From an uncultured Pseudomonadota bacterium (GTDB lineage Bacteria; Pseudomonadota; Alphaproteobacteria; JACZXZ01): a stretch of DNA of 37,168 nucleotides. Below are positions 10,491 through 36,500 of this stretch, one piece after another. Location: NCBI GenBank assembly GCA_963842155.1, contig CAWJFP010000037.1, positions 1 through 37,168 on the forward strand, in the 5' to 3' direction. The translations under genes and the position numbers were made by a program. The notes under the pieces are model-generated. The model searched no databases and was not told the DNA's origin. It was given only the letters and a program-made list of their open reading frames with translations. Every line of letters starts with the position of its first letter. The stretch's first letter is position 1.

Positions 10491-10816
10491 GGTTAGTCCT
10501 CCTGTTGTTTCCTTCGGGTCGATTGGGTTGGTTCAGTGAGCCGTGGTCAGGAATGGGGCGCGCATCGCATCTCTTGCTCGACTATGGCGCCGCTCCCGAA
10601 GGGCAAACCCAGCGCCCCCACCCGTCGCGACCGCCGGTCTCGCTTAAAATGGCGGCCAACCGCCCAACAGAAAATACCCTGAGGAACGAAAGTTTCACGC
10701 AAAAAAGCTAAGCCGGCGTTAGCCGACCCGCGCATATTGTGCCGCCTTTCGGCGTCGCGTGCGTGGCGTCTCGGCCGCGCACTGGCGCGGCCGAGAGCTT
10801 TGTCCACTTGTCGCGG

Positions 10817-15456: not shown

Positions 15457-16235
15457 GCTCGATCGCCGAACGGATGGCTGCGGCCGGCACCGGCAACGCG
15501 ATCGAATTGCGCGGTGTGAGCCGCTTTTTCGGCGCGCTCGCGGCCTTGACCGACATCACGCTCGGCGTGCGACCCGGAGAGCGACGCGCCGTGCTCGGAT
15601 CGAACGGCGCGGGCAAGACGACGCTGCTCAATTGCGTGACCGGCGATTTTCCACCGACGTCGGGAACCGTGCGATTCTTCGGCGAGGACGTCACGACGCT
15701 GCCGCCGCACGAGCGCATTCGCCGCGGGCTCCGTCGCACCTACCAGATTTCGCTGCTGTTCCAGCGCCTCTCGGTGCGCGACAACGTCTATCTCGCCTGC
15801 CGCGGCGTCTCGCGCGGCCGCTTCTCCTTCATCCGCACGCGCGCGAGTGACGCGCTCATGCAGTCGGTCGCGGACCTCATCTCGCTGGTCCATCTCGAAT
15901 CGGTGACCGATCGTCTGGTCGGGGAGCTGGCGCACGGCCAGCAGCGCCAGCTCGAAATCGCGCTGGCGCTTGCCGGCGCGCCGCGCTTCATCCTTTTCGA
16001 CGAGCCGGCGGCGGGCCTTTCGCCAAACGAACGGGCCGATCTGGTCGCGATCCTCACCGCACTTCCCGCCCATATCGGCTACATCATCATCGAGCATGAC
16101 ATGGACGTCGCGCTGCGGGTCGTCGAGAGCGTCACGATGATGCACAACGGACGCATCTTCAAGGAAGGTTCGCCGCGCGAGATCGAGGCGGATCCCGAGG
16201 TGCAGCAATTGTATTTGGGTGGCGGCCATGCCTGA
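15453..16235 (+). CDS. ABC transporter ATP-binding protein (LivG family)
   Basis: Walker [10 protein letters not shown], signature [15 protein letters not shown] and Walker B FILFDEP; ends ...[12 protein letters not shown]. The GTG start overlaps the LivM stop (GTGA) and has a GGGAGGA Shine-Dalgarno. The internal ATG at 15474 is also possible. Confidence 0.8.
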
Positions 16236-18444: not shown

Positions 18445-18448
18445 CCGC

Positions 18449-19283
18449 ATGCCGCGCATCCCGCGCTCCGACATTCTCGCGCGGCTCCACGCGATGAAAG
18501 CGCGGGGCGAACCGATCATCGGCGCGGGCGCCGGGACGGGCCTCTCGGCGAAGGGCGAGGAGGAGGGCGGCGCCGATCTTATTGTCATCTACAATTCGGG
18601 GCGGTACCGCATGGCCGGCCGGGGGTCGCTCGCCGGCATGATGCCATATGGCGACGCCAACGGCGTCGTGCTCGAAATGGCCCGCGAGGTGCTGCCCGTC
18701 GTCACCCGCACGCCGATCCTCGCCGGGGTGTGCGGCACCGACCCCTTCCGCCAAATGGATCACTTTTTGGATGAAGTCGCACAGCTGGGCTTCAGCGGTG
18801 TGCAGAATTTCCCGACCGTCGGGCTCATCGACGGCCGCTTTCGGGCGGGGCTCGAGGAGACGGGCATGGGCTATGCCCGCGAAGTCGAGATGATCGCCAA
18901 GGCGCGCGCACGCGACCTTCTGACCACGCCCTACGTGTTCGACCCCCCAGAAGCCGCCGCGATGGCGCGCGCGGGCGCCGACGTCCTGGTCTGCCACTTC
19001 GGCCTGACCGTCGGCGGCTCGATCGGGGCCGCGACGTCGACCCGGCTGGAGAATTGTCCGACGTTGACCGACGCGATGGCCGAGGCGGCGCTCGCGGTGA
19101 ACCGCGACGTTTTTATCCTCGTTCACGGCGGGCCGCATCGCCGAGCCGGCCGACGCCGAGTATGTCCTGGCGCGGGCTCGCCACTGCCACGGCTTCTATG
19201 GCGCTTCGTCGATGGAGCGTCTGCCGGTCGAGCGCGCGCTATGTGCCCAGGTTGCAAAATTCAAAGCGATCAAGAAAGCTTAG
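18449..19283 (+). CDS. PEP-hydrolase-like TIM-barrel protein (PF09370-type; canonical partner of UPF0261, fused to it in plant Tm-1), with an apparent +1 frameshift near the C-terminus
   Basis: [85 protein letters not shown]... matches the family. After ...FILVHGGP the conserved tail [48 protein letters not shown] (stop 19281-19283) lies in the +1 frame. An extra C at about 19136 (ccgCatc) explains the shift. Confidence 0.7.
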
Positions 19284-19339
19284 TGGAGTGAAGAACAGGC
19301 CCGCGTCGGACCAACGGTCGGCGGGCGGGAGGAAGTAAG

Positions 19340-22300: not shown

Positions 22301-22595
22301 GATGGAGAAGATCGAGGGCATCCGCATCCTGCAGGTCGACGGCCTCAACGGCGGGCGCGGCGGCTCGGGTGGGCGCAGCGCCACCGATGAGGTCATCGAT
22401 TCGGCGCTGCGTTACCGCGTGCAGGCGCCGATGATCGACCAGATCCTCGCCGAGATCGGCATCGAGGGCGGCAGCCTCTCGCGAATGCCGGGCCTCATTC
22501 GCGAGGCGCGCGATATGCAGGGCATCCGCAAGGAGGCGGCGCCGAAGAAGCCGCCCGAAGAGGGCGGAGGCGGATCATCGTCGGGGCAGACCTGA
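19340..22595 (+). CDS. Giant flotillin / SPFH (band-7) family protein (~1085 aa) with an expanded coiled-coil repeat region; one apparent +1 frameshift at about 20535-20545
   Basis: N-terminal TM helix (ILGSLIIWLIVAVIVIAIVVYFV), then an SPFH domain (EVSFVRTGLFGEKVVINSGAFVLPFIHEVTPVNMNVLRMQVV...). A long E/A/R/I-rich repeat region follows, then a flotillin-type C-terminus (...IRILQVDGLNGGRGGSGG...). ORFs 19340..20545 and 20574..22595 join if one G is removed from cgagGag: ...ARIAQER(E)ENRRLEIERARNLEQAEIAARE... continues the repeat pattern without a break. Confidence 0.7.
20040..21650. repeat. About twelve tandem 132-bp (44-codon) coding repeats inside the flotillin-like gene
   Basis: Example: gccgagatcgcggcgcgcgaggcggtcgaggcg(t/a)cgcgtatcgcccaggagaag(a/g)a(g)gatcgccg appears at about 20948 and again at about 21345 (3 x 132 bp) with 2-3 mismatches. 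The protein-level unit is RxLEIxRxRxxExAEIAAREAVEAxRIAQEKxIAAERIAAEQET. Confidence 0.8.
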
Positions 22596-22625: not shown

Positions 22626-23063
22626 ATGCCCCGCGTCTATGTCTCGAGCGTCATCAACGGTCGCTCCGACCGCGTCTGGGCGCGGGTGCGCGATTTCAAT
22701 GGCTTGCCCTCCTGGCATCCGGGGATCGCGGAGAGTCGGATCGAGAACGGCGAACCGGCGGACAAGGTCGGCTGCGTGCGCGACTTCCGCCTGCGCAACG
22801 GCGACCGAATCCGGGAAAAGCTTCTCGGTCTGTCGGACTTCGATCTGTTCTGCACCTATTCGATCCTCGAATCCCCCATGGGCGTCGAGAATTACGTGGC
22901 GACGCTCCGTCTCACCCCGATCACCGACGGAGAGCGGACCTTCGTCGAGTGGACGGCGGAATTCGACTGCCCGCCGGAGCGCGAGGCCGAGCTCGTCTCG
23001 ACGATCGGAGGCGGCGTTTTCCAGGGCGGTTTCGACGCCCTGAAACGCCAGTTCGCAGGATGA
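22626..23063 (+). CDS. SRPBCC-superfamily protein (polyketide cyclase / START / CoxG-like fold)
   Basis: 145 aa; begins MPRVYVSSVINGRSDRVWARVRDFNGLPSWHPGIAES... with the typical SRPBCC opening (x-I-x-A-P-x-D-x-VW); a GGAGCG Shine-Dalgarno precedes the ATG. Confidence 0.6.
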   Translation: MPRVYVSSVINGRSDRVWARVRDFNGLPSWHPGIAESRIENGEPADKVGCVRDFRLRNGDRIREKLLGLSDFDLFCTYSILESPMGVENYVATLRLTPITDGERTFVEWTAEFDCPPEREAELVSTIGGGVFQGGFDALKRQFAG

Positions 23064-23084: not shown

Positions 23085-23546
23085 ATGATCCGGATTGTCC
23101 GCTCGACGATCATCGACGCGCCGACTGACCGCGTCTGGGCGTTCCTGCGCGATTTCAACGGGCACGAACGCTGGCATCCGGCCGTCGCCAAGAGCGCGAT
23201 CGAGCGCGGCCAGAGCGCCGACAAACTGGGTTGTGTGCGGCGCTTCTTCCTGCGCGACGGCTCGGAGCTCCGCGAGCGTCTGCTGACACTCTCCGACCTC
23301 GAGCAGAGCTTTACCTATTGCCTGCTCGAGACGCCGATTCCGCTATTCAATTATACTGCCCATGTCCGCCTCGCGCCGGTCACCGATGGCGACCGGACGT
23401 TCTGGGAGTGGCGGTGTTCGTTCTCGACGAGGAAAGGCGAGGAGGCTGAAATGACGCGCCTCGTCGGCGAGGACATCTATGACGCGGGATTCGCCGCCGT
23501 TCGTGCTCATCTCGCCGCATCCTCGGGATTGGAGGGCCGCGCGTGA
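23085..23546 (+). CDS. SRPBCC-superfamily protein, tandem paralog of the preceding gene
   Basis: MIRIVRSTIIDAPTDRVWAFLRDFNGHERWHPAVAKSAIE... is about 45% identical to the upstream paralog. Its stop overlaps the GTG start of the FAD subunit (GTGA). Confidence 0.6.
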   Translation: MIRIVRSTIIDAPTDRVWAFLRDFNGHERWHPAVAKSAIERGQSADKLGCVRRFFLRDGSELRERLLTLSDLEQSFTYCLLETPIPLFNYTAHVRLAPVTDGDRTFWEWRCSFSTRKGEEAEMTRLVGEDIYDAGFAAVRAHLAASSGLEGRA

Positions 23547-24355
23547 GCATCACGGTAAAGACCTTCGCCCGATTAGCCGACGCGGCCGCGGCGCTCGCGA
23601 GCGAACGCGGGGCGCGCTTTCTCGGCGGCGGAACGCTGCTCATGCGCGCGGTCAATGAGGCCGACCCGGCGATCGAGACGATCGTGCGCTCGAGCGATCC
23701 CACCCTCCTCAACATCGCAGTCTCGTCGGGCCGCGTGGAGCTCGGCGGCGGCGCGACCATGGCCGCGATCCTCGCCGAGCGCGAACTCGCGTTTCTGCAT
23801 CCGGTGGCGCGCGTGGTCGGCAGCCCGGCGGTGCGCGAGGCGGCGACCGTCGGCGGCAATCTGTTTGCGACAAAAGGCGACTTCGCGACGGCGCTGCTCG
23901 CGCTCGACGCGACCGTGATGCTCGCTGGCGGCGTCGGTCAACGCGAGCTGCCGCTCGAAGAGTTTCTCGGTCGTCGCGAGCGGGGGGCCGCGCTCGTATC
24001 GAGCGTCGCGTTCAAGCGGCCGGCGGCCGACGCGTTCCGGTTTGCCAAGGTCACCCGCGTCCACCCCAAAGGCATGTCGGTCCTCTCGATCGCTGCCCAA
24101 TTGCCCCTTGTCAGCGGCCGGATAACCGGCGCGAGGATTGCCTATGGCGGGATGGATCGTACGCCAGTGAGGGCCAAGGCGGCTGAACGGGCACTCGAGA
24201 GCCGCGGGCTCGACGCGGCCGGCATCGCTCCGGCTCTCGCCGTAGCCGCCGACGGCACCTCACCCGCCGACGACGCGATCGCCAGCGCCTGGTGGCGGCG
24301 GGAAATCCTCCTTGTCCATCTGCGCCGGCTGCTGCTCGGCGTCGGCCAAGCGTGA
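23543..24355 (+). CDS. Molybdopterin-dehydrogenase FAD-binding (medium) subunit, CoxM/XdhB-like
   Basis: RFLGGGTLLM and ...REAATVGGNLF... FAD-binding motifs; 270 aa; GTG start coupled to the preceding gene. Confidence 0.75.
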   Translation: MSITVKTFARLADAAAALASERGARFLGGGTLLMRAVNEADPAIETIVRSSDPTLLNIAVSSGRVELGGGATMAAILAERELAFLHPVARVVGSPAVREAATVGGNLFATKGDFATALLALDATVMLAGGVGQRELPLEEFLGRRERGAALVSSVAFKRPAADAFRFAKVTRVHPKGMSVLSIAAQLPLVSGRITGARIAYGGMDRTPVRAKAAERALESRGLDAAGIAPALAVAADGTSPADDAIASAWWRREILLVHLRRLLLGVGQA

Positions 24356-24362
24356 GGCGCCG

Positions 24363-24842
24363 ATGAAGACGCCGATTCAATTTCGTCTCAATGATGAGGA
24401 TGTCGCCGCCTTCGCCGAGAGCGGCGCCAACCTGCTCGACGTGCTGCGCGAATCGGTCGGCGACCTGTCGGTGAAGGGCGGCTGCTGGCAGGGCACCTGC
24501 GGCGCGTGCACGGTGCTTGTCGACGGCGCGCCGCGCCTTGCCTGCGTAACACTGGCGGAAAGCTGCGCCGAGCGGTCGGTCGAGACCGTCGCGGGGCTGC
24601 GGCGCGGCCCCGACCTCCACCCCCTGCAAAGTGCCTTCATGGAGCGCTTCGCGGCCCAGTGCGGCTATTGCACGCCGGGCATGCTGATGGCAGCCAAGGC
24701 GCTCCTCGACCGCAATCCCAATCCCTCCCGGGAGGATGTCGTCGACGCCATTTCCGGCAATATCTGCCGCTGTACTGGCTATGAACCCATCATCCAGGCG
24801 GTCCTCGAAGCCGCCCGCGGCGACAGCCGTCGCCGCGCCTGA
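24363..24842 (+). CDS. (2Fe-2S)-binding small subunit, CoxS/XdhC-like
   Basis: MKTPIQFRLNDEDV... with plant-type ferredoxin cysteines CWQGTCGACTV and a second cluster motif QCGYCTPGMLM...GNICRCTGYEPI. GAGG Shine-Dalgarno 7 nt upstream. Confidence 0.85.
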   Translation: MKTPIQFRLNDEDVAAFAESGANLLDVLRESVGDLSVKGGCWQGTCGACTVLVDGAPRLACVTLAESCAERSVETVAGLRRGPDLHPLQSAFMERFAAQCGYCTPGMLMAAKALLDRNPNPSREDVVDAISGNICRCTGYEPIIQAVLEAARGDSRRRA

Positions 24843-24853
24843 AGGACACCGCC

Positions 24854-26475
24854 ATGCTCGAATTCCGCAAGGACATTTTCGCCGACGAACGCGACGACAA
24901 CCTGAAGGAGGTCGGCCACCCGACGCAGCGTCAGGACATGCTCGGGCACGTCACCGGGACCTCGGCCTATTACGATGATCACCGCTTCGCCAACCTGCTC
25001 CATCTGAAGGTTCTGCGCAGTCCGCATGCCCATGCGCGTATTCGCTCGATCGACGACTCGGTCGCGGCGCGCGCGCCGGGCGTCAAGCGGATCATTCGGG
25101 CGGCCGACGTTCCGGTCAATCTCAATACGCTCTTGAGCCTCATCCAATTCGGCAAGGACGACGAGCCTTCGCTCGCGACCGACGTCGTGCGCTACAAGGG
25201 CGAGCCGATCATCGGAGTAGTCGCGACCAGCGAGCGCGCGGCGCTTCAGGCCCTCGCCATGGTGCGCGTCTCCTACGATCCGCTGCCGGCAGTCTTCGAT
25301 GTAGAGGAGGCGCTGAAGCCGGGAGCCCCGTCGGTCAACGCAACCTATCCGAAGAACACGTTCGAATATTACGGCAAATACGACCACCAGAAGCTTCGTT
25401 TCGGCGACGCCGATACGGCCTTCGCGCAGGCCGACGTCGTGCTCGAAGAGCGCTATCAGATGTCGCCGATCGAGCATGCCCCGATCGAGACCAACGGCTC
25501 AATCGCCGTGCCGGACACGAACGGCCGATTTGTCGTTTACACCTCGACCCAGGCGCTCTTCTTCTCTTTGGACACCGCCGCCAAGATCAATGCGATGCCC
25601 TCGAACCAGTTGCATTTCATCGGCGGCACTGTCGGCGGCGGCTTTGGCGGCAAGGTCGACACCCTCACCGAGCCCCTCGTCATCCTCGCGGCGCGCCTGA
25701 CGGGCGCACCCGTGCGCTACCGGCTGAGCCGGCACGAGGAAATGCAGTTCGGCTCGCCCCGCGGCGCTGAGCGAATCTATGTCAAAGACGGCGTCATGCG
25801 GGATGGGCGGATCATCGCCCGCAAGGTGAGAGCTTATTTCGACAGCGGGGCCTACACGCGGCTTTCGAGCTACGCGGCAGTCAAATGCGCGGCCCATATT
25901 CCCGGACCCTATACGATCCCCAACGTCCACGCGGACATCTTCTGCGTTTTCACCAACCGAACACCGGCGACCGCAATGCGCGGGTTCGGCGTCACGGCGC
26001 TCGACTTCGCGCTTGAATGCCAAATGGACAAGCTCGCCGTTGCGGTCGAGATGGACCCTCTCGAGTTCCGCATTCTCAATGCTTACCGCGACGGCGACAT
26101 GAAAGCGCACCGGCGCGAGGCCAAGAACTGCGCGCTCATCGAATGCGCGCAGGTCGCCGCTGAAAAAGCCAACTGGCCGATCCGCGAGGAATTCCGCAGG
26201 ATGTCGTCGCGGGTCGGCGGGGGGCAGCGCGGACCGGCGGCGGCGCGACCCGGACCGGCGCACAGGCTCCTGTCGCCGCCCCCGCGCCCGCACAAACCGG
26301 GGCAGGCTCGCCCCAGCGTGTCCCGTACGATCGCGCCGCTGCGGCCGCGCCGGCACATAACGTGCCACCGCCGACGCCCGCGCGAAGCGCACCGCCACCC
26401 CCTGCCGCGCCGCCTGCCGGATCGACGCATGGGGCGCCGCGCTTTTCCTCAGTTTTTGGAACACGGAGGCGCTGA
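24854..26475 (+). CDS. Molybdopterin-binding subunit, N-terminal half (xanthine dehydrogenase / aldehyde oxidase family), with a probable Pro/Ala-rich C-terminal tail reached through a -1 shift in a G6 homopolymer
   Basis: Conserved to about aa 450 (...HFIGGTVGGGFGGKVDT..., ...TPATAMRGFGVTALDFALECQMDKLA...). After the G-run at 26219-26224 the annotated frame becomes Arg-rich nonsense and overruns the next start. The -1 frame instead gives AQAPVAAPAPAQTGAGSPQRVPYDRAAAAAPAHNVPPPTPARSAPPPPAAPPAGS... and stops at TGA 26473-26475, 3 nt before the next ATG, which has a GGAGG Shine-Dalgarno. Confidence 0.65.
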
Positions 26476-26478
26476 TCA

Positions 26479-27501
26479 ATGGCCAAGCATCGCGGACGCG
26501 GGGTGGCGACCATCAATTATCCGATCGGCATGAATCTCGGCGGCGATCCGAGCCAAGCGCTGGTTCATTCCAATCCGAGCGGAAAATTCACCGTCGCTCT
26601 TTCCTCGATCGACCTCGGACAGGGAATGAAATCGGTGACGCGGCAGATCTGCGCGGAGACGCTAGGCGTGCCGGTCGAGGACGTCTATGTCGACACCGCC
26701 GATTCGGACACCGGCCCGCATTGCATGGGCTCGTTCGCCTCGCGCGGAACGCACCGCGTCGGCAACGCGGTGATGGTAGCGGCGCGCGAGGCGCGCGCGG
26801 TCATGATGGAGGCGGCGGCGGAGGAGCTTGAAGTCGACCCAGGCGACCTCGAGACCGACGGGCGCGGCTCCATCCGGGTGAAGGGCGCGCCCCACCGGTC
26901 GATCTCCGTGCGCGACGTCGCTATCGCGGCCCAGTTCCGTCAGGGACGTACGATCTCCGGGCGCGGCATTTTCCTGGTGCCGTTGTCGGACGTCGATCCG
27001 GAAACCGGCGAGATGTCGCCGGCAACCTGCTACGCCCACGCCTGTCTCATTGTCGAAGTCGAGGTCGATGACGAGACCGGCGACGTCACCGTGCTGAAGA
27101 TGACAAGCGCCTACGAGGTTGGGCGCGCGATCAACCCCAAGCTCGTCGAACAGCAACTCGTCGGCGGCTCATGGATGGGCATGAGTCACGCGCTCTATGA
27201 GACTACGGAACCGTATTACCCGGATACCCGTGAGGGACCGCGGGACTTCAACGAATACCTGATGCCCGGCCCCGGCGACATCTGTCCGCACGACATTGTG
27301 GTGCTCGAACGGCCCGCCCCTGACGGCCCCTTCGGCGCGAAGGGCCTGGGCGAGATGTGCGCCAATCCCGTCCTGCCGGCGGTCGCCAACGCGATTTTCG
27401 CGGCGGTTGGTGTGCGTATCAACGAACTGCCAATCACGCCGGAGAAAGTTCTCAGGGCGCTGAAAGCGCGGGGCGGCGCGGCCCCGGCGCGCGCGCGGTG
27501 A
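26479..27501 (+). CDS. Molybdopterin-binding subunit, C-terminal half (separate ORF; split large subunit)
   Basis: MAKHRGRGVATINYPIGMNLGGDP... corresponds to the start of the C-terminal Mo-cofactor domain of single-chain XDH-family large subunits. It has its own GGAGG Shine-Dalgarno and ATG, and a conserved ...GPFGAKGLGEMCANPVLPAVANAI... tail. Confidence 0.75.
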   Translation: MAKHRGRGVATINYPIGMNLGGDPSQALVHSNPSGKFTVALSSIDLGQGMKSVTRQICAETLGVPVEDVYVDTADSDTGPHCMGSFASRGTHRVGNAVMVAAREARAVMMEAAAEELEVDPGDLETDGRGSIRVKGAPHRSISVRDVAIAAQFRQGRTISGRGIFLVPLSDVDPETGEMSPATCYAHACLIVEVEVDDETGDVTVLKMTSAYEVGRAINPKLVEQQLVGGSWMGMSHALYETTEPYYPDTREGPRDFNEYLMPGPGDICPHDIVVLERPAPDGPFGAKGLGEMCANPVLPAVANAIFAAVGVRINELPITPEKVLRALKARGGAAPARAR

Positions 27502-27507
27502 TCTGTC

Positions 27508-28389
27508 ATGGCGGTGCGCCGTACCATCGTCGGCATCGGCAGCCCGCGGGAGCTCGAGGAGGCGCTTCGCGCCGCCTACTACCTGGCCGACGAGGAGCTT
27601 TCGACCGCCGCCTATCTCGCGCTCGCCCTCGGCAAGCCGCTCTTGCTCGAAGGCGCGCCGGGCGTGGGCAAGACCGAAGCCGCCAAGGCGATTGCCGGCG
27701 TGCTCGGCCGCATCCTCCTCCGCCTGCAATGCTACGAGGGCATCGACGCGGCGGCGGCGCTCTACGAATGGAATTTTCCGCGCCAGATGCTCGCGCTGCG
27801 CCGGGAGGGCGCCGGCGAGGTCGACATCTATCGCGACGAGTTCCTTATCGAGCGGCCGATGCTCGCCTGCCTGCGGCGTCCCGAAGAAACAGTGCTGCTC
27901 ATCGACGAGATCGACCGCTCCGACCACGAGTTCGAGGCCTTCCTCCTCGAGTTTCTTTCCGACTTTCAGATTTCGATTCCCGAGCGAGGCACCATTCGCG
28001 CTTACGAGCGGCCGGTCGTGATCCTCACCTCCAATCGGACACGCGAATTGCATGAAGCATTGCGTCGCCGCTGCGTCTATCACTGGATCGATTATCCCGC
28101 GCCCGAGCGCGAAATGCGGATCATCATGATGCGCGCATCGGGTGTTGGCGAGCGGGCGGCGCGGGCCGTCGTCGCCGCAGTGGGACGATTGCGCCGCGAG
28201 CCGCTCGCCAAGCTCCCCGGGATCGCGGAGGCGGTCGAATGGGCGGAGGCCGCAACGCTCCTCAACGAACAGGGAACGCGGTGGCCGGAAGCCTTCCGGC
28301 GCTCGCTCGGCGTCGTCCTCAAGGACGAGGACGACTTCGTTCATGTCGCGCCGAAGATCGACGCCATTCTCGCGGAGGCGCAGGCATGA
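27508..28389 (+). CDS. MoxR-type AAA+ ATPase, CoxD-like maturation factor
   Basis: Walker A LLEGAPGVGKT, Walker B VLLIDEIDR, sensor ...ILTSNRTRELHEALRRRC...; it sits in the canonical position after the Mo subunit. Confidence 0.85.
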   Translation: MAVRRTIVGIGSPRELEEALRAAYYLADEELSTAAYLALALGKPLLLEGAPGVGKTEAAKAIAGVLGRILLRLQCYEGIDAAAALYEWNFPRQMLALRREGAGEVDIYRDEFLIERPMLACLRRPEETVLLIDEIDRSDHEFEAFLLEFLSDFQISIPERGTIRAYERPVVILTSNRTRELHEALRRRCVYHWIDYPAPEREMRIIMMRASGVGERAARAVVAAVGRLRREPLAKLPGIAEAVEWAEAATLLNEQGTRWPEAFRRSLGVVLKDEDDFVHVAPKIDAILAEAQA

Positions 28390-29498
28390 TCGACACGGCG
28401 CGTCCCATTGCCCACTTCCTCGGCTTCACCGCGCTGCTGCGGCGCGCGGGCTTCGCCGTCGCGCCCGAGCAGACGATGGCTTGGCTCGCCGCGATCGATC
28501 TTCTCGGACCCGAAGAGATCGGCGACGTCCGTCGCGCCGCCCGCGCCACGCTGGCGCCGCCGCCGGAGCGCTTCGCCGAATTCGACGCGCTGTTCGATGC
28601 GCATTTTCTCGGCGCGCTAGGCTCGCAACTGGAATCAGAGCCGAGCGACGAGGCGCCGCTGCGGGCTGCCGACGATTCGTCGGTTGGGCCCGAGCCGATT
28701 TTCGGCGAGGAGACGCGTGAATCGGGCGCCAAGGCGACTGGCGCCGAGAGACTCTCGGCGCGGCGCTTCGGACCCGGGGACCAGAACGAAACGCTGCGTC
28801 GCTTCGCCCGCGCTTTGCCGGCCCGCGTGCCGCGGCGACGCGGTTATCGCTGGCGGGCGGCGCGCGGCGGGCCCGGCACCGATGCGCGGCGCATGTTTCG
28901 CGACGCCATGCGCCACGCCGGCGAGTTCATCCGGCTGCGCCGCCGCAGGCGCCGTCTGCGGCAGCGCCGCATCGTCGTCCTTATCGATGTCTCCGGCTCG
29001 ATGAAGGAGCGCACGCAAGCCCATCTTGCCTTCGCCCATGCCCTGGCGCGCGCCGCCGAGACTGCCGAGGTGTTCACGATCGGGACGAGGCTCACACGCA
29101 TTACCCGGGCGTTGCGGCTGCGCAACCGCGAACGGGCGCTCGCCGCCGCGTCTTTGCTCGTTGCCGACTGGGACGGCGGCACCCGCATTGGTGAGGCGCT
29201 CGGGGCCTTTCTCGCCATTCCGCGCTTCGCCGCGCTGGCGCGCGGGGCGGCGCTCGTCGTCCTTTCGGACGGGCTCGAGCGCGGCGATCCGAGCGCGATG
29301 CGCGACGCGGTCGAGCGCTTCTCTCGGATCGCGTGGCGGACCGTGTGGCTGACGCCGCTCGCCGCCGATCCGGCCTTCGAGCCTCGCACCGCCGGCCTGA
29401 GCGCGGCGCGGCCCTTCCTCGACGAACTCGGCGACGGCGGCTCGATCGACAGCATCTGCGCCCATGTTCTCGATTTGGCGAACGCGAGGGCGGCATGA
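28386..29498 (+). CDS. VWA-domain protein, CoxE-like
   Basis: ATG overlaps the coxD-like stop (ATGA). VWA MIDAS motif ...RIVVLIDVSGSM... in the C-terminal half; N-terminal region typical of CoxE. Confidence 0.75.
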   Translation: MIDTARPIAHFLGFTALLRRAGFAVAPEQTMAWLAAIDLLGPEEIGDVRRAARATLAPPPERFAEFDALFDAHFLGALGSQLESEPSDEAPLRAADDSSVGPEPIFGEETRESGAKATGAERLSARRFGPGDQNETLRRFARALPARVPRRRGYRWRAARGGPGTDARRMFRDAMRHAGEFIRLRRRRRRLRQRRIVVLIDVSGSMKERTQAHLAFAHALARAAETAEVFTIGTRLTRITRALRLRNRERALAAASLLVADWDGGTRIGEALGAFLAIPRFAALARGAALVVLSDGLERGDPSAMRDAVERFSRIAWRTVWLTPLAADPAFEPRTAGLSAARPFLDELGDGGSIDSICAHVLDLANARAA

Positions 29499-30383
29499 CG
29501 GCGATCGTCGACGCCCATCACCACATCTGGCGGCGCCGCGACCTGCCCTGGCTCGACGGGCCGATGCAGCCACGCATCTTCGGCCCTTACGAGCCGATCC
29601 GCCGCGACTATCCGATCAGCGAATATCTGGAGGACATCGCGGGCTGCGACGTGACCCGATCCGTCTACGTCCAGGCCAATTGGGCCAAGGACGCCTTCGA
29701 GGACGAAGTCGCCTACGTGCAGCGCGCCGCCGACGAGAGCCGGTTATCCGCAGGCGATCGTTGGCTACGCCGACTTTCTCTTGAAGGACGTGCGCCCGCA
29801 GCTCGACCGCCTGACTAAATATCGCGGCATGCGCGGGTTGCGAATGCAGCTGCACTGGCACGAAAACCCGCAATACCGGTTCGCGGCGGACCCAGACCTA
29901 GCCCGCAACCCGACGCTGCAACGAAACGTCGCCCACCTCGCCGATTACAACTGGAGCTTCGATCTCCAGGTCTTCGCCGGTCAGATGGACGGCGCGGCGG
30001 ACCTCGCTGCCAGCTGTCCCAAGGTTATTTTCATCCTTCAGCACGCCGGCATGCTGGAAGACCTTTCCGCGACCGGATGGACGCAATGGCGCGCCGGGAT
30101 GCGCCGTCTCGCCGCGTGCCCGAACGTGGTTTCGAAGCTGTCCGGCCTCGGCTCGTTCATCCATAGCAACGATCCCGACCACATCACGGCCATCGTGCGC
30201 GAAACTGTCGAGGCGTTCGGTCCGACACGCTGTCTGTTCGGCTCGAATTTCCCGATCGAAAAATTGTGGACGTGGTATTCCGACCTCGTCGCGGCGTACC
30301 GAGGCGCGCTCGCGCCGTTCGGAGAAGCGGCGGCGGGCGCGGCGCTCCATGAAACGGCGGCAAGGGTTTATCGGCTCAATTGA
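29495..30383 (+). CDS. Amidohydrolase-2 family (PF04909) metal-dependent hydrolase/decarboxylase, with an apparent +1 frameshift at about 29741
   Basis: MTAIVDAHHHIWRRRDLPWL... carries the HxH metal motif. After ...VQRAADES the conserved continuation GYPQAIVGYADFLLKDVRPQLDRLTKYRGMRGLRMQLHWHENP...ILQHAGM...LFGSNFPIEK is in the +1 frame. An extra C (gagagcCggttat) explains it. ATG overlaps the coxE-like stop. Confidence 0.7.
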
Positions 30384-30416: not shown

Positions 30417-31265
30417 ATGGCGCTCGAAATCAAGATTCTCGACTACGGCGATATCGAACTCGAATCGAGCTTCCTGGTGCTCTATCGCGATTGCGGCCGC
30501 ACGCGCCGGGTGCCGGTCTTCGGCTTTCTCGTTCTCGGCGGGACTTGGCCGGTGCTGGTCGACACCGGCTATCGCTCGAACCAGATCATGGAGACTCTCG
30601 GGATGCGCGGGCTGCAATCCCACGAGACTATGATCGAGAACCAACTGAAGAAGCACGGGCTGAAGCTCGGGGACGTGCGCTACGTCCTCCATACGCACCT
30701 GCATATCGACCATGCCGGCAAGGACGACCTCTTCCCCATGAACACGGCGGCCGTCATCAATCGGCGCGAGCTCGAATATTCGGTTTCGGGCCTCATGCAT
30801 CCGCAATATCCGGCGGTCGACATCAAGCATCTCGTCGATCGCCTCCACACCAAGGGGGCGCTGCGCTTTCTCGACCTCGAAATATCCGGGCCGACCGAAC
30901 TGATGCCAGGGCTCATCTGCGAGGCAGCCGGCGGCCATACCGAGGGCTCGATGAACGTCATCGTGAAGACCAGCGAAGGGGTCGCGACGATCTGCGGCGA
31001 CGTGATCTACGACATAAACGACCAGCTGGTCGAACCCTTCCGCGAAATCGGCGACATGGAGCCGCGCGTCACAGGCAACCACGGCACGACGAAGCGCCAG
31101 GAGAAGGCCGCGATCAAGAAGGTCGTCGCCAGCTCGCGCTTCGTGTTGCCGGTCCACGACCGTCCGGCGCTAATCGAGGCCGGGCAGGTTGTCGGCCGTC
31201 TGCAGGACTCGGTTCCGGGTGCAATCGTCCAGTCCTTGCCGAGACGCCAATGGTTCCCGGCGTGA
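30417..31265 (+). CDS. MBL-fold metallo-hydrolase (AHL-lactonase-like)
   Basis: HTHLHIDHAG (HxHxDH zinc motif) with downstream His/Asp ligands; 282 aa. Confidence 0.75.
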   Translation: MALEIKILDYGDIELESSFLVLYRDCGRTRRVPVFGFLVLGGTWPVLVDTGYRSNQIMETLGMRGLQSHETMIENQLKKHGLKLGDVRYVLHTHLHIDHAGKDDLFPMNTAAVINRRELEYSVSGLMHPQYPAVDIKHLVDRLHTKGALRFLDLEISGPTELMPGLICEAAGGHTEGSMNVIVKTSEGVATICGDVIYDINDQLVEPFREIGDMEPRVTGNHGTTKRQEKAAIKKVVASSRFVLPVHDRPALIEAGQVVGRLQDSVPGAIVQSLPRRQWFPA

Positions 31266-31281: not shown

Positions 31282-32853
31282 ATGAACCACTCCGCCCTGC
31301 GTCGCGAATTTTCGGATTTGATCGATCTCGACGCGCCCGTGGAGCGGCTGGCGGGCGGGTTCACGTTCACCGAGGGGCCGATCTGGCACCCGCGCGATCA
31401 ATACCTCCTCTTCTCCGACATGCCGGCCGACGTGCGGCGCCGCTACGACGAGCACGGCGGCGTGCGCGAAGTAATGAAGCCTTCAAACAAGTGCAACGGC
31501 ATGACCTACGATGCGAACCTCGCGCTCGTTATCTGCGAGCATGCGACGTCGAGCCTGGTGCGCGAGCGCGACGGGCGGCGCGAGATTCTTGCATCGCACT
31601 TCGAGGGCAAGGAACTCAACAGCCCGAACGACGTGTGCGTGCGCTCGGACGGTTCGATCTATTTTTCCGATCCCTGGTACGGGCGGATGCCGGTCTACGG
31701 CGTCGAGCGGCCCCGGCAGCTCGGGTTTCAGGGCGTCTACCGCGTGCCGCCGAGCGGCGGCGAGCCTCAGCTTCTCGTCGATCGCAACCTCTTCGAGCAG
31801 CCGAACGGGCTCTGTTTTTCGCCCGACGAGCGGCAACTCTACGTCAACGACACGGTGCGCGCGTTGATCCGAGTGTTCGACGTGAACGCCGACGGCTCGC
31901 TCGGCCCCGACCGCATCTTCGCCTCCGGCATTCGCTCCGAACTGGAGCCGGGGGTGCCCGACGGCATGAAATGCGACAGCGCCGGCAATGTCTGGGTGAC
32001 GGCGCCGGGCGGCGTATGGGTCTATTCGCGCTCGGGCGCGGTGCTCGGCAAGGTCAGGGTTCCGGAGCTCGTCGCCAATCTGCACTGGGGCAAGTCCGAT
32101 TGGCGCACGCTGTTCATGTGCGCCACCCATTCGCTCTATGGGGTGCGTACCAAGATCGGCCCTCGCGTCGAGCCCTTCATGCGATCGAATGCCCCAGCCA
32201 GCACGGGTGCGACGGCGGCAGCGCCCGAGCGTGCCAGCGCGAAAGGTGGTCTCGCGCTCGATCCTGCGCGCTGCGCGCTCATTATCCAGGACATGCAGAA
32301 CGACGTAATGATGGAAGGCGGCGCCTTCGCCTCCTCGGGCTCGCCGCAACACGCCCGCGCGCAGAACGTCATCGAGAACATCCGCCGCCTAGCCGACGCT
32401 TGCCGGTCGCGCGGCGTAATGATTATCCACGTTTGGTTCGTCGTCGAACCGGGCGCGCTCGGCTTCACGCTCAACGCACCGCTGTTCGAAGGCGTCGTCG
32501 ACCAGAAGGCGATGGTGCGCGGAACCTGGGGCGCGGCGCCGGTCGCCGGACTCGAGCCGCAGCCCGGCGACCACATCGTCGAAAAGATGCGCATGAGCGC
32601 GTTCGAAGGAAGCAAGCTCGAAACCGTCCTCAGGTCAGGCGGTCGCGACACGATCATCGACACCGGTGCGTGGACCAACATGTCGATCGAGCACACCGCC
32701 CGTACGGCGGCCGACAAGGGCTATTTCGTCGTCGTGCCGGAGGACTGCTGCTCGACGATGAATGCCGACTGGCACCGCGCTTCCATCCAATACGCCATGC
32801 AGAACGTCGCCGCGGTGACGAAAGCAACCGAGGTCATCGCCGCCCTGGGTTAG
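31282..32853 (+). CDS. Two-domain protein: SMP-30/gluconolactonase/LRE-like beta-propeller (aa 1-300) fused to an isochorismatase-like cysteine hydrolase (aa ~330-523)
   Basis: N-terminal part: ...FTEGPIWHPRDQYLLFSDMPA..., ...NSPNDVCVRSDGSIYFSDP..., ...PNGLCFSPDERQLYVND... are SGL hallmarks. C-terminal part: ALIIQDMQNDV...VMIIHVWF...DTIIDTGAWTNMSIEHTARTAADKGYFVVVPEDCCS is an isochorismatase-family core (D...K...C triad context). The two are joined by RSNAPASTGATAAAPERASAKGG with no stop or internal start codon. ATG at 31282 with an AAGGGGA Shine-Dalgarno. Confidence 0.6.
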   Translation: MNHSALRREFSDLIDLDAPVERLAGGFTFTEGPIWHPRDQYLLFSDMPADVRRRYDEHGGVREVMKPSNKCNGMTYDANLALVICEHATSSLVRERDGRREILASHFEGKELNSPNDVCVRSDGSIYFSDPWYGRMPVYGVERPRQLGFQGVYRVPPSGGEPQLLVDRNLFEQPNGLCFSPDERQLYVNDTVRALIRVFDVNADGSLGPDRIFASGIRSELEPGVPDGMKCDSAGNVWVTAPGGVWVYSRSGAVLGKVRVPELVANLHWGKSDWRTLFMCATHSLYGVRTKIGPRVEPFMRSNAPASTGATAAAPERASAKGGLALDPARCALIIQDMQNDVMMEGGAFASSGSPQHARAQNVIENIRRLADACRSRGVMIIHVWFVVEPGALGFTLNAPLFEGVVDQKAMVRGTWGAAPVAGLEPQPGDHIVEKMRMSAFEGSKLETVLRSGGRDTIIDTGAWTNMSIEHTARTAADKGYFVVVPEDCCSTMNADWHRASIQYAMQNVAAVTKATEVIAALG

Positions 32854-32855
32854 AG

Positions 32856-32905
32856 CATGATCCCGAAAAGTGGAATCCGGTTTTCGAAAAAGATCATGCT
32901 CAATC
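32856..32905. terminator. AT-rich extended hairpin between the convergent SGL-isochorismatase gene and the SDR remnant
   Basis: gagcatgatc-ccgaaaa-gtggaatccgg-ttttcg-aaaaa-gatcatgctc: a 10-bp outer stem plus a 6-bp inner stem, starting 3 nt after the TAG stop. It is atypically low-GC for this genome. Confidence 0.35.
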
Positions 32906-33102: not shown

Positions 33103-34376
33103 AATCACTTTAGGGCACCTCGAAAAATAGCCGCCTTAGCCAGTTTGTGCGAGTTCTAACTGATGAGGACAAGATTCGCAGAGGTGGGGCGATGGGACAA
33201 CTCGGATTTTTCGATGCGGACAAGCGGCTTGCGGCGATTTCTGCGAAGGGCGATCCGCTGGAGATGATCGATCGGGTGGTGCCGTTCGAGCGCTTCCGTG
33301 CCGAGATTGAGGCGGTAGTGTTGACGCCGGCGGAGGACAAGAAGAGCAGCGCTGGCCGCAAGCCGATCGATGTCATCGTGATGTTTCGGATGCTGGTGCT
33401 GCAATCGCTCTACAATCTTTCCGACGAGCAGGTCGAGTATCAAGTGAGCGACCGCATGTCGTTTACGCGGTTTCTGCGGCTTGGCATTGAGGATCGCGTA
33501 CCCGACGGCACGACGCTGTGGCTGTTCCGTGAGACGTTGGGGAAGGCCGGGCTGATCGAGAGGCTGTTCAAGCGCTTTAGCCGGCATTTGGAGGCGAAGG
33601 GCTACATTGCACGTGGCGGCCAGATGGTAGATGCCACGATCGTGCCGGTTCCCAAGCAACGTAATAGCCGCGAAGAGAATGAGGCCGTGAAGGCCGGCAA
33701 GACACCACAGGAATGGCAGAAGAACCCCGCGAAAAACCGGCAGAAAGACAAGGATGCGCGCTGGACCAAGAAGCACGGTAAGAGTTTCTACGGCTACAAG
33801 AACCACGTGAATGCGGATGCCAAGCACAAGCTGATCCGTCACTACGAGGTGACCGACGCGAGCGTGCATGACAGCCGGAAGTTCTATGGGCTTCTGAACA
33901 AGGCCAACACGTCTGCGAACGTATACGCGGACAGCGCGTATCGCTCGGCCGCGACCGAGGCGAAGCTCAAGGTGCGCGGCTTGCACAGTCACATTCATCA
34001 GCGTGCGAGCCGCAATCATACGCTATCGAAAGCACAGGAGAACGCCAACCACCAGAAGAGCAAGGTTCGGGCTCGCGTCGAGCACGTGTTCGGTGCTCAG
34101 CAAACATCGCCGGGTGGTCGGATTGTACGGACGATCGGTATCGTGCGGGCGAAAGCCAAGATCGGCCTGCAGAACCTCGCCTACAACATCCGCCGGCTTG
34201 TGACGCTGGAGCGGATGGTGGCCGCGGCATAACGGAGAAGTCCGACTGAAGGGCCCTGAACAGGGCACCTGCCGCAAAAAGCGGAGACGCATCCGCGCCA
34301 AATCAACAGTGGAAATGATCGTCGCGCCGCAGGGGTGGCCGAGCCAACGACAAAATCATCATTGTTCGAGGTTCCC
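33103..34376 (+). mobile_element. IS5-family insertion sequence (1274 bp) with imperfect 16-18 bp terminal inverted repeats and 4-bp TTTA target-site duplication
   Basis: Left end GGGCACCTCGAAAAATAG (33103-); right end reverse-complement GGGAACCTCGAACAATGA (-34376). TTTA lies immediately outside both ends (33099-33102 and 34377-34380). Removing the element restores the SDR reading frame. Confidence 0.75.
33192..34232 (+). CDS. IS5-family DDE transposase
   Basis: MGQLGFFDADKRLAAISAKGDPLEMIDRVVPFERFRAEIE... parallels IS5 Ins5 (MSHQLTFADSEF...EQILPWQ). DDE_Tnp_1 core ...GQMVDATIVPVP...YGYKNHVNADAKHKLIRHYEVTDASVHDS...ADSAYRS...; 346 aa; GAGGTGG Shine-Dalgarno. Confidence 0.85.
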   Translation: MGQLGFFDADKRLAAISAKGDPLEMIDRVVPFERFRAEIEAVVLTPAEDKKSSAGRKPIDVIVMFRMLVLQSLYNLSDEQVEYQVSDRMSFTRFLRLGIEDRVPDGTTLWLFRETLGKAGLIERLFKRFSRHLEAKGYIARGGQMVDATIVPVPKQRNSREENEAVKAGKTPQEWQKNPAKNRQKDKDARWTKKHGKSFYGYKNHVNADAKHKLIRHYEVTDASVHDSRKFYGLLNKANTSANVYADSAYRSAATEAKLKVRGLHSHIHQRASRNHTLSKAQENANHQKSKVRARVEHVFGAQQTSPGGRIVRTIGIVRAKAKIGLQNLAYNIRRLVTLERMVAAA

Positions 34377-35290: not shown

Positions 35291-35676
35291 ATGTCCAAGC
35301 GCGTATGCCCGGATGCCGCATTACTGATGCTGCACTGGCAGAACAGTGTTTGCGACCCCAAAGGGGTCTGGGGCAAGAACCTTTGTGCGCAGATCGAAAA
35401 GGGAAACTCGATCAGCAACGCGCAGAAGGTGCTGGCGACCGCGCGCAGCCGGAGCATGCTGACCATCTTCGTCAATATTGGCTGGCGTCCCGGTTTCCCC
35501 GAAATGCCTGAGAACCAGCACTATCCGCTGTTGCAGGGTGCGAAGGACGAAAACAAGGGAATCATCGGCAGTTGGGAGGTTGACGTTATCGACGCGCTCA
35601 AGCCGACCAACAACGACCTGATCGTGATCAATTACGGCTCGGACAGCTTTGAAGGCACCGACCTCGACCGGATTTG
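35291..35676 (+). pseudogene. Isochorismatase-family hydrolase, N-terminal about 128 codons only (truncated at a recombination junction), in a low-GC segment
   Basis: MSKRVCPDAALLMLHWQNSVCDPKGVWGKNL...MLTIFVNIGWRPGFPEMP...LIVINYGSDSFEGTDLDRI matches the isochorismatase fold through the conserved GTDLD motif. Immediately after RI the sequence and GC content switch to an unrelated AraC-type C-terminus. Confidence 0.6.
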
Positions 35677-35679
35677 CGC

Positions 35680-35950
35680 ATCAACGCCCTGGACAGCCTT
35701 GGCGACCTGGCCAGCCGCGCTGGCGGGCACCGGGCCCGGCAGTACGGCTTCGCCGCGCTGACCGGCATGAGCCCGATGGCCTACCTGCGTCAGGTCCGCT
35801 TGCAGCGCGCCGATGCCGAACTGCGCGCCGCGGATAGCGCGGCCCGCGGCGTGGCGAGCATCGCCAGCCGGTGGGGGTTCGCCAACTTCGGCCGGTTCGC
35901 CGCCGCCTACCGGATGCCGCTACGGGCGCACGCCATCCGAGACGCTGCGC
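35680..35950 (+). pseudogene. AraC-family regulator C-terminal HTH fragment (no N-terminal domain, no start)
   Basis: ...RQYGFAALTGMSPMAYLRQVRLQRADAELRAADSAARGVASIASRWGFANFGRFAAAYR... carries the second AraC HTH signature. It begins abruptly at the junction with the truncated isochorismatase gene. Confidence 0.55.
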
Positions 35951-36079
35951 CGGACTGGCTGAGCCCGCGAGCACAAGCTGCGCGAACTGGCCAGTGCCGG
36001 TGCGCATCGCGGATCGACCCTGCTCGCGTTCCCACCTGGAGCGTCGGGCGTATCCGAGCCGCATGCAGGAGGCGCCATC

Positions 36080-36500
36080 GTGACCGCCCAGCTCATGCCC
36101 GACGAAGCCGCGTTCGACTTCAACCCGATGACTAGCCCGCACCGGGAAGACCCGGCATGTGTTCTACCGGACGGCGCGCGACCGGCCGGTGAGGTTCAGC
36201 CCGTCGATCGGTGCGTACATGGTGACCCGCTACGCGATTTGGTTGCCGTGCTCGATGACCCGCAGACTTACTCGTCCAAGGCCGCCCTGCCGATGATCTA
36301 CGACAGCCCGCCTGAGGTCGTTGCCGTGCTGAAGGCCGGCCATGTGCCAGAGACGACCATGGTGGTGAACGAGGACGAGCCCGAGCACATAAGGTCTCCG
36401 CCGGGTGTTCGACGCCGGGTTCACCGGCGCGCGGGTGCCGGCCATGGCTCGCTGATGCGGGAATCGGCCGCCACCCTGATCTACAGTTTCGTTGGGATGA
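36080..36500 (+). pseudogene. Cytochrome P450 N-terminal region, decayed (several frameshifts)
   Basis: Stitching two frames gives MTAQLMPDEAAFDFNPMTSPHREDPACV|FYRTARDRPVRFSPSIGAYMVTRYA|DLVAVLDDPQTYSSKAALPMIYDSPPEVVAVLKAGHVPETTMVVNEDEPEH. This matches the P450 pattern DPYPxYxxLR...PVxxxxxGxWxVTRYxDVxxVLRDPRFSS...MDPPEHTRLRRLV. After EPEH the reading frame disintegrates. Confidence 0.5.

Follow-up and report, generated by a model that had tools for sequence, protein, structure and literature searches.

A stretch of 37,168 nucleotides (positions 1–37,168, forward strand) of contig CAWJFP010000037.1 (assembly GCA_963842155.1; uncultured Pseudomonadota bacterium, Alphaproteobacteria, JACZXZ01), referred to below as the window, contains an open reading frame (ORF) at 31282–32853 in which an SMP-30/gluconolactonase/LRE (SGL) β-propeller is joined to an isochorismatase-like (IHL) hydrolase. 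This raises the question of whether the two domains form a genuine protein and, if so, what they would do together. A first-pass annotation of the window had proposed a bifunctional lactonase::amidase, with the caveat that an indel could have created the fusion. The two-domain gene is genuine, and hundreds of alphaproteobacteria from soil and sea have kept it as the last gene of an island built around a molybdenum (Mo) hydroxylase. Its IHL half carries Ser or Ala, and never Cys, at the nucleophile position of the fold, and the protein is best read as a two-step hydrolytic module acting downstream of the hydroxylase.

Architecture and authenticity of the fusion gene

The ORF lies on the forward strand and is complete, running from an ATG at 31282 to a TAG at 32851–32853 without an internal stop and encoding 523 amino acids. 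The frame is open from a TTG at 31189; the ATG at 31282 was taken as the start because all homologues open with the equivalent Met (M-x-H-[ST]-A-L-R-R-E-F). A Shine-Dalgarno-like AAGGGGA lies upstream of this ATG, which is spaced 16 nt from the stop codon of the preceding metallo-β-lactamase (MBL)-fold gene. A Pfam scan of the translation, as the first-pass annotation had suggested, identified both domains as complete and with matches far above chance: SGL (PF08450) spans residues 29–281 (profile positions 1–244 of 246, E = 7.5e-50, 170.3 bits against a cut-off of 26.3) and Isochorismatase (PF00857) spans residues 331–516 (positions 1–174 of 175, E = 2.4e-49, 168.2 bits against a cut-off of 27). 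The motifs ALIIQDMQND and DTGAWTNMSIEHTARTAADKGY, on which the initial domain assignment had drawn, are both present in the protein. No solved structure covers both halves (query TM-score ≤0.51, Foldseek). A search for the exact window fusion protein gave no matching record, so that the homologues P0001, P0077, and P0112 served to establish gene contexts.

The two halves are connected by an Ala/Ser/Gly/Pro-rich linker at residues 303–325 (32188–32256, forward strand), delimited from the family alignment and an AlphaFold2 (AF2) model and predicted to be disordered, with pLDDT values below 50 at residues 303–322. As had been noted, neither a stop nor a plausible start lies between the domains; the sole start-like codon, Met300, has no preceding Shine-Dalgarno motif and belongs to the conserved C terminus of the SGL half (EPFMRS). 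Among 108 family members, the segment between the conserved EPxM and xDPxRCA motifs occurs in 20 different lengths of 21–42 residues, all of them in frame, and the family linkers are rich in Ala, Ser, Gly, Arg, and Pro.

A search of related genomes, also proposed at the outset, recovered the same full-length protein. The best 120 database clusters match at 74–90% identity, with query coverage of 100% or as fragments, and carry both Pfam domains. Among at least 581 confirmed relatives, taken as one genome per GTDB species, the 80 listed are all full-length at 71–91% identity; these 80 genomes comprise short- and long-read metagenome-assembled genomes and cultured strains with complete genomes. 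Carriers with complete genomes include Bradyrhizobium oligotrophicum S58, B. sp. ma5, and B. ganzhouense, and full-length fused copies are also found on a replicon of Shinella zoogloeoides (67% identity) and on a plasmid of Yoonia (Rhodobacterales, 59%).

The caveat about indels was justified for the window, where three neighbouring genes (Amidohydro_2, the Mo-subunit gene L_N, and the flotillin-like gene) change reading frame relative to the proteins of the closest intact locus, L001, yet the fusion ORF itself keeps one frame throughout its alignment with the intact L001 orthologue (residues 1–524, 90% identity). The in-frame variation of the linker and the occurrence of the same full-length protein across many genomes, obtained with different sequencing technologies, thus show that the fusion is not an indel artefact. 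The weakest of the alternatives, that an assembly or sequencing error within 32150–32260 joined two genes, can be dismissed, even with the frameshifted neighbours and the separate SGL and IHL genes of Actinobacteriota counted in its favour.

A propeller with a complete metal site

The SGL half (residues 29–281; 31366–32124, forward strand) was assigned as a six-bladed β-propeller by Pfam, alignment, and Foldseek. It matches the gluconolactonases 3e5z and 3dr2 with E values of 3e-47 and 6e-38, respectively, over residues 4–292 and at 32–34% identity, and the AF2 model, with pLDDT values mostly of 84–95 for residues 1–300, fits both structures with target TM-scores of 0.87–0.89. In the alignment to 3e5z and 3dr2, Glu31 (31372–31374), Asn116 (31627–31629), Asn175 (31804–31806), and Asp227 (31960–31962) occupy the metal-binding positions, and none of the four varies among 26 family members. 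The corresponding site of XC5397 we take to be E48/N134/N191/D242; the positions given here come from the alignment.

The propeller and the four metal residues are features shared with the bacterial gluconolactonases, Xanthomonas campestris XC5397 (3dr2) and the putative gluconolactonase 3e5z. Unlike these, the SGL domain studied here is joined to, or encoded adjacent to, an IHL domain, and it is found in a Mo hydroxylase island rather than in sugar-acid metabolism. As judged from its sequence, the SGL half has all of the features expected of an active metal-dependent hydrolase of the lactonase type, and it is predicted to be a lactonase.

An isochorismatase-like domain without the catalytic cysteine

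The IHL half (residues 331–516; 32272–32829, forward strand) was assigned by Pfam, by alignment to RutB and 3kl2, and by Foldseek, where the model fits 3kl2 with a target TM-score of 0.81–0.85. Among proteins of solved structure it is closest to 3kl2 (E = 2e-29), RutB, biuret hydrolase, and YecD, and the matches to Cys-type amidohydrolases span E values of 2e-29 to 1e-12. YecD (1j2r) matches at 2e-15, with EntB and PhzD further off (2fq1, 7.5e-10 and 1nf9, 2e-7, respectively). Asp337 (32290–32292) and Lys435 (32584–32586) align to D24 and K133 of RutB (numbers counted by hand, as the alignment shows ranges) and are invariant across the family. At the position of the nucleophile, where RutB reads TNV-C-VEST and 3kl2 reads TNC-C-VEST, the fusion reads TNM-S-IEHT, with Ser468 (32683–32685) encoded by TCG, two changes from a Cys codon. 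The CCS triplet that the first-pass annotation had counted in the conserved core is not the catalytic centre, being part of VPEDCCST, the motif of the last β-strand.

The substitution is a property of the whole family. Over 237 relatives the nucleophile position is occupied by Ser in 232 and by Ala in five, with no Cys; Ser is present in all 117 motif-bearing fused proteins and in 115 of the 120 stand-alone IHL relatives, the remaining five, with Ala, being partner proteins of the Egibacter type. Also invariant in fused and split forms, which were compared at 52–63% overall identity, are, among others, Q339, N340, D341, H357, H383, R413, W416, E434, R437, E470, H471, R474, D478, and W497. Conservation across loci is similar for the two halves (72–92% for IHL and 73–95% for SGL), which shows the IHL half to be under selection and, very probably, functional.

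The amidase subgroups of this fold use a D-K-C triad, and the C162S substitution kills the triuret hydrolase TrtA (PMC7948467). The Cys-less PhzD (D38-K122-G155) and EntB (D37-K123-G156) are enol-ether hydrolases, acting on isochorismate and vinyl-ether groups (PMC5353710, PMC12553813), and YecD, likewise without the Cys, shows lactamase or amidase activity only once it carries G145C (PMC12553813). The IHL half of the fusion keeps the fold, the Asp and Lys, and the TNxxxExT surroundings of RutB (8bkd), BiuH, TrtA, and Streptomyces avermitilis 3kl2, but it carries Ser468, or Ala in some orthologues, in place of their nucleophilic Cys. Like EntB, PhzD, and Escherichia coli YecD (D-K-G), it retains the Asp and Lys without a thiol nucleophile, but it has Ser or Ala where those have Gly; moreover, EntB and PhzD belong to siderophore and phenazine biosynthesis, have no SGL partner, and are not found beside a Mo hydroxylase. 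A thiol amidase is unlikely because Cys is absent at the position of Ser468 and published amide hydrolysis in this fold needs it. The domain is best classed, by its residues, as a Ser/Ala variant of the Cys-less group, in a subfamily lacking the Cys that defines the amidase subgroups (RutB, BiuH, TrtA, NicF, PncA, and CSHase). The proposed lactonase::amidase is thus supported in part: the propeller has a full metal site of the lactonase type, but the amidase label for the IHL half is not supported. A published description of a Ser/Ala-type IHL variant, or of an IHL enzyme with a Ser nucleophile, was not found in the literature.

Separate orthologues and the origin of the fusion

Actinobacteriota encode the stand-alone proteins that are nearest to the C-terminal half, and these are ∼202 residues long. 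In every readable locus an SGL gene of ∼300 codons lies directly upstream of the stand-alone IHL gene on the same strand, namely in Egibacter rhizosphaerae (L087) and its relatives (L093 and L094), in Gaiellaceae (L090), in the similarly organised L089 and L095, and in L092, where the SGL gene is fragmented. The Egibacter SGL protein is 59% identical to residues 9–302 of the window protein and its IHL partner is 53% identical to residues 326–522, with the two genes 25 nt apart. Spacers between the split genes measure 11–49 nt and contain Shine-Dalgarno motifs of the GGAGG type.

The split SGL proteins end in LGYM[NRS], which corresponds to EPFMRS (residues 297–302) of the window protein, and the split IHL proteins begin with M-D-R-I-D-P-K-x-A-A-x-x-I-Q-D, which corresponds to L-A-L-D-P-A-R-C-A-L-I-I-Q-D (residues 324–337), so that the linker of the fusion sits where the split loci have their intergenic spacer. 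The fusion therefore arose by a linker replacing the stop, the spacer, and the start. Orthologous loci with two separate genes had been named in advance as evidence against a real fusion. Such loci do exist in Actinobacteriota; nevertheless, they reflect an evolutionary fusion event and not an artefact, because every relative closer than ∼59% identity is fused. With both halves present as separate, adjacent, and co-oriented genes (L087, L093/L094, L089, L090, and L095), SGL and IHL form a Rosetta-stone pair, which argues that they act together.

A search of 1.84 billion representatives clustered at 50% gave one full-length entry (P0121) among the best 150 matches listed, and a single SGL-IHL fusion family was seen among them. 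The proteins P0135, P0142, P0146, P0175, and others were considered as independent SGL-IHL fusions and rejected, as Pfam shows tandem SGL propellers in them. As a separate observation, the Gaiellaceae-type locus L095 encodes a second IHL paralogue (10606–11205) directly after the Ser-type one; it reads GAWTNWAIEHT, with Ala at the nucleophile position, and is followed by a zinc-dependent alcohol dehydrogenase gene.

A molybdenum hydroxylase as the constant neighbour

In alphaproteobacteria the fusion gene is the last of an island of ∼13–14 genes, in the order UPF0261, PEP-hydrolase-like, flotillin-like (∼1100 residues), two SRPBCC (CoxG-like), the Mo hydroxylase, MoxR/CoxD, VWA/CoxE, Amidohydro_2, MBL, and SGL::IHL, with the hydroxylase itself, a four-subunit member of the xanthine dehydrogenase family, encoded as FAD subunit, 2Fe-2S subunit, and a Mo subunit divided into L_N and L_C. 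The island ends with the fusion gene because the genes downstream differ between loci, being GST/SDR, PEP-hydrolase, zwf-pgl-gnd, or SDR-FAH-SDR genes or, in the window, an IS5 transposase. The core from flotillin to fusion was found in 64–72 of 85 loci, with the others cut off by contig ends, and thus in essentially every locus with enough flank. The hydroxylase with its split large subunit is syntenic in ∼65 of 66 fused loci with enough flank.

In the window, Pfam places the FAD subunit at 23543–24355, the 2Fe-2S subunit at 24363–24842, L_N at 24854–26533, and L_C at 26479–27501, all on the forward strand. The L_N gene contains one of the frame changes, its C-terminal 60–90 residues aligning at 26215–26472 and the rest at 24854–26344; the ORF, of 559 residues as compared with 540 in the orthologue, overlaps the start of L_C. 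Among proteins of solved structure, L_N is closest to the nicotinate dehydrogenase subunit NdhL of Eubacterium barkeri (3hrd_A, E = 9e-61 over ∼420 residues), and the overall organisation resembles that of NdhF/S/L/M (3hrd), in which FAD and 2Fe-2S subunits are accompanied by a Mo subunit on two polypeptides (NdhL and NdhM), although the match of L_N to NdhL is modest and reaches no equivalog threshold. The separate SRPBCC proteins near the hydroxylase recall HpdA of Ensifer adhaerens (bioRxiv 10.1101/2020.01.08.898148), one of the N-heterocycle Mo hydroxylases that have an SRPBCC subunit of their own. Unlike the island, the nicotinate and 3-hydroxypyridine (3hpd) clusters consulted in the literature have no SGL or IHL genes. 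By NCBIfam, xanthine dehydrogenases and 4-hydroxybenzoyl-CoA reductase lie closer to the large subunit than CO dehydrogenase does, with all equivalogs far below cut-off. An identity as CO dehydrogenase was considered and rejected, since the large subunit is closer to nicotinate and xanthine dehydrogenases and 4-hydroxybenzoyl-CoA reductase than to CoxL. For the island proteins in general, the NCBIfam equivalogs fuconolactonase, pyridoxolactonase, AiiA, xanthine and CO dehydrogenases, and MadB fall far below their cut-offs, and consequently no specific name can be transferred.

The split pairs of Actinobacteriota adjoin a hydroxylase of the same split-L kind in six of seven loci. In the Egibacter type the order is M-S-L_N-L_C-cyclase-EthD-IclR-SGL-IHL, followed by FAH, SDR, FAH, aldehyde dehydrogenase, and RraA-like genes. 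In the Gaiellaceae type a tautomerase and a cupin accompany a divergent L_C-L_N-S-M set, which is followed by coxD-coxE-xdhC-SGL-IHL and then by aldehyde dehydrogenase-NIPSNAP-SDR-cupin-thiamine pyrophosphate (TPP) enzyme-RidA-amidase. The catabolic genes after the pair in other lineages include aldehyde dehydrogenase, FAH-family hydrolases, SDRs, a tautomerase, RidA, and an amidase. The recurring core of split-L hydroxylase, SGL, and IHL, combined with lower-pathway genes that are specific to each lineage, supports a catabolic role downstream of the hydroxylase, and the catabolic setting suggested at first reading is borne out to the extent that hydroxylase, hydrolase, and lower-pathway genes all lie nearby.

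Proposed function and its alternatives

The reading that we favour, with moderate confidence, is that SGL and IHL form a two-step hydrolytic module acting downstream of the Mo hydroxylase, as a vertically conserved fusion that is the last gene of a mobile island. The hydroxylase would turn a heterocycle into a hydroxy- or oxo-derivative, equivalent to a cyclic amide or ester tautomer, so that the substrate of the module, this product or an intermediate formed shortly after it, is probably a hydroxylated heterocycle. The propeller, with its Glu/Asn/Asn/Asp metal site, would then open the cyclic ester or amide in a lactonase-type reaction, and the IHL domain would process the ring-opened product by general acid-base catalysis through Asp337 and Lys435, in the manner of the Cys-less isochorismatases with enol ethers; the group hydrolysed could, as one candidate, be an enol ether or of the enamine type, exposed when the ring is opened. 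Acid-base catalysis appears most likely for the IHL half because Asp337 and Lys435 are kept and Ser468, or Ala, stands in place of the nucleophilic Cys. The intermediate may be channelled between the joined domains, and aldehyde dehydrogenase, FAH-type, SDR, and tautomerase enzymes would complete the pathway where they are encoded nearby.

A more specific form of this proposal is advanced only tentatively, and we judge it unlikely on present grounds. It holds that the SGL-IHL pair completes an oxygenase-independent, hydrolytic ring opening of the heterocycle from the nicotinate dehydrogenase-like hydroxylase, with the propeller as a lactamase or lactonase on a pyridone- or pyrone-like product and the IHL domain performing a reaction that, isochorismate chemistry apart, would be new to this fold. 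The Cys-less domain would in this case hydrolyse an enamine or enol ether, releasing ammonia or an alcohol. If true, this would constitute a new catabolic pathway that is widespread in the dominant soil Bradyrhizobium and Gaiellaceae.

Several observations weigh against the two-step module. The full-length AF2 model has a predicted TM-score (pTM) of 0.66, with no confident interface between SGL and IHL and with IHL loops of low confidence. In L092 the pair has no Mo hydroxylase within 9 kb, and in Gaiellaceae it directly follows the maturation genes coxD-coxE-xdhC, an arrangement that would also suit a non-catabolic role. Both 3kl2 and RutB, to which the IHL half is closest among solved proteins, are Cys enzymes, so Ser could be an alternative nucleophile. 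On a plasmid of Paraburkholderia sp. D15 an SGL protein 61% identical to the N-terminal half (L097, 12001–12903) has no IHL partner, and the coupling of SGL and IHL is therefore not absolute. A paper or experiment on the SGL::IHL fusion or the island was not found in the full-text literature. Separately, the surroundings of the Paraburkholderia SGL gene are of the hydroxyquinol type (intradiol dioxygenase and maleylacetate reductase); the SGL gene itself is unannotated in the PLSDB table.

The alternative that survives best makes the IHL half a serine esterase or lactonase with a Ser468-Lys435-Asp337 triad, giving two ester-hydrolysing activities for a dilactone or lactone-ester intermediate. 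Other hydrolase families offer well-established examples of Ser/Lys catalysis, esters are hydrolysed more easily than amides, 232 of the 237 relatives have the Ser, and the succession of lactonase-like Amidohydro_2, MBL, and SGL genes or domains suggests lactone or ester chemistry. The Ala orthologues of the Egibacter type would, however, be inactive and yet are conserved with their SGL partner, and precedent for a Ser-nucleophile enzyme in the fold was not found in the literature, such that we consider this possible but rather doubtful.

The canonical lactonase::amidase, in which the IHL half would be a covalent amidohydrolase like RutB, BiuH, or NicF with Ser468 attacking an amide or ureide, is improbable. 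In its favour, the IHL half is nearest in sequence to RutB, biuret hydrolase, and 3kl2, the Asp, Lys, and surrounding motif are retained, and a nitrogen-heterocycle context is plausible. The loss of amidase activity in TrtA upon Cys-to-Ser exchange (PMC7948467) is set against this, as are the Ala-bearing orthologues, which keep the same gene pair and context. The top match to RutB, 8bll, does read TNVSVEST where 8bkd reads TNVCVEST, but it is a Ser variant and not a natural Ser form. Furthermore, the NCBIfam equivalogs RutB, BiuH, and PRK11440 score 78–81 bits against cut-offs of 195–378.

To the same degree, it is improbable that the IHL half is non-catalytic and instead multimerises the SGL lactonase or regulates it, as a scaffold for oligomerisation or by binding a ligand. 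The canonical nucleophile has been lost, and IHL proteins are obligate oligomers with inter-subunit active sites (PMC7948467). Asp337, Lys435, and many polar pocket residues are nevertheless invariant in both fused and split forms, the domain is as conserved as its SGL partner, and it is kept as a separate gene in other phyla.

Finally, the pair could be an accessory or maturation factor of the hydroxylase, engaged in processing or protection of its cofactor. The Gaiellaceae arrangement, in which coxD-coxE-xdhC and the pair share one orientation, and the position of the alphaproteobacterial fusion two genes past coxD-coxE both agree with this. Clusters of the Egibacter type, however, lack coxD and coxE and have an IclR regulator between hydroxylase and pair, clear catabolic genes continue downstream of the pair, and in L092 the pair occurs with no hydroxylase nearby. 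We know of no Mo-cofactor maturation step that needs an SGL or IHL fold, and this explanation is very improbable.

Distribution and database names

Both halves clearly belong to known superfamilies, and the module of SGL and Cys-less IHL tied to a Mo hydroxylase is uncharacterised. The architecture had been presented as not previously described; this is accurate insofar as no paper was found, but the fusion is common in public databases under generic names, with hundreds of fused entries called "isochorismatase family protein" (NCBI) or "gluconolactonase" (JGI). Stand-alone proteins of ∼202 residues with PF00857 only (P0312–P0422) are named "gluconolactonase" at JGI and "cysteine hydrolase" at NCBI, and none of them has the Cys. 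The JGI label on IHL-only proteins is probably an annotation transfer from the fused proteins, and the database names of IHL-only and Cys-less proteins are misleading.

The family and its island of ∼13–14 genes occur in hundreds of species, including soil Bradyrhizobium, soil Gaiellaceae, and plasmids of marine Rhodobacterales. The pattern of fused and split forms is strong, testable evidence for cooperation of SGL and Cys-less IHL downstream of a Mo hydroxylase, and finding the substrate would define both a new route of heterocycle catabolism and a new chemistry for the Ser/Ala-type IHL site.

Other genes of the locus

The gene directly upstream of the fusion, in the same operon, encodes an MBL-fold hydrolase similar to AHL-lactonase and 4-pyridoxolactonase (30417–31265, forward strand; Pfam, with NCBIfam below cut-off) and is syntenic in 83 of 85 loci, being absent in Shinella. 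It is preceded by the Amidohydro_2 hydrolase (29495–30383, forward strand), which is distantly similar to L-fucono-1,5-lactonase and shifts from frame 2 to frame 3 near 29742–29755. The gene is intact in L001 (295 residues); in the window, residues 1–87 correspond to 29495–29755 and residues 83–295 to 29742–30380, and the frame change is either a sequencing indel or the mark of a pseudogene. Further upstream on the same strand are the CoxE-like VWA protein (about 28404–29498), the CoxD-like MoxR AAA ATPase (27508–28389), and, before the hydroxylase, the two CoxG-like SRPBCC proteins (22626–23063 and 23085–23546), each assigned by Pfam and by alignment to L001.

Pfam assigns the SPFH/flotillin protein of ∼1100 residues to 19340–22595 on the forward strand; a frame change near 20530–20575 divides it in the window into ORFs at 19340–20545 and 20574–22595. 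This giant flotillin is conserved beside the Mo hydroxylase in nearly all loci and may relate to membrane anchoring together with the CoxG-like SRPBCC proteins. The PEP-hydrolase-like gene (18239–19291) and a UPF0261 domain (from 17180, within the ORF 16219–18444), both on the forward strand and identified by Pfam, begin the island. Both genes are syntenic in the window, Shinella (L096, 1–1351), and Yoonia (L098, 3462–5365), which share this upstream gene order; in L004 a PEP-hydrolase-like gene follows the fusion gene. UPF0261 and the PEP-hydrolase-like TIM barrel are the two halves of plant Tm-1-like proteins. The ORF at 16219–18444 (741 residues) combines an ABC-transporter ATPase domain (residues 28–168) with the N- and C-terminal domains of UPF0261 (residues 329–729); as the window has frameshifts elsewhere, an indel may have joined two genes here.

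Directly past the stop codon of the fusion gene, at 32853–32903, a perfect 10-nt inverted repeat (GAGCATGATC...GATCATGCTC) encloses ∼30 nt; it resembles a repetitive palindromic element or a terminator, such as are frequent in genomes of the Bradyrhizobium type. The IS5-type DDE transposase (DUF772 and DDE_Tnp_1; 33147–34232, forward strand; Pfam) marks the end of synteny and lies outside the system, and an inverted-repeat search found no convincing terminal inverted repeats around this insertion sequence. A second, truncated isochorismatase-like ORF at 35291–36135 (156 residues, profile positions 1–112 of 175) has LHWQN at the catalytic Asp motif and overlaps an ORF with an AraC-type helix-turn-helix (35674–36135); it is probably another frameshifted or decayed gene. 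Among the other loci, L070 (JAUEPE010000001.1, "Frankia sp. RB7") carries an island of the Bradyrhizobium type at a Bradyrhizobium-like identity of 74%, and the record is probably misassigned or contaminated.

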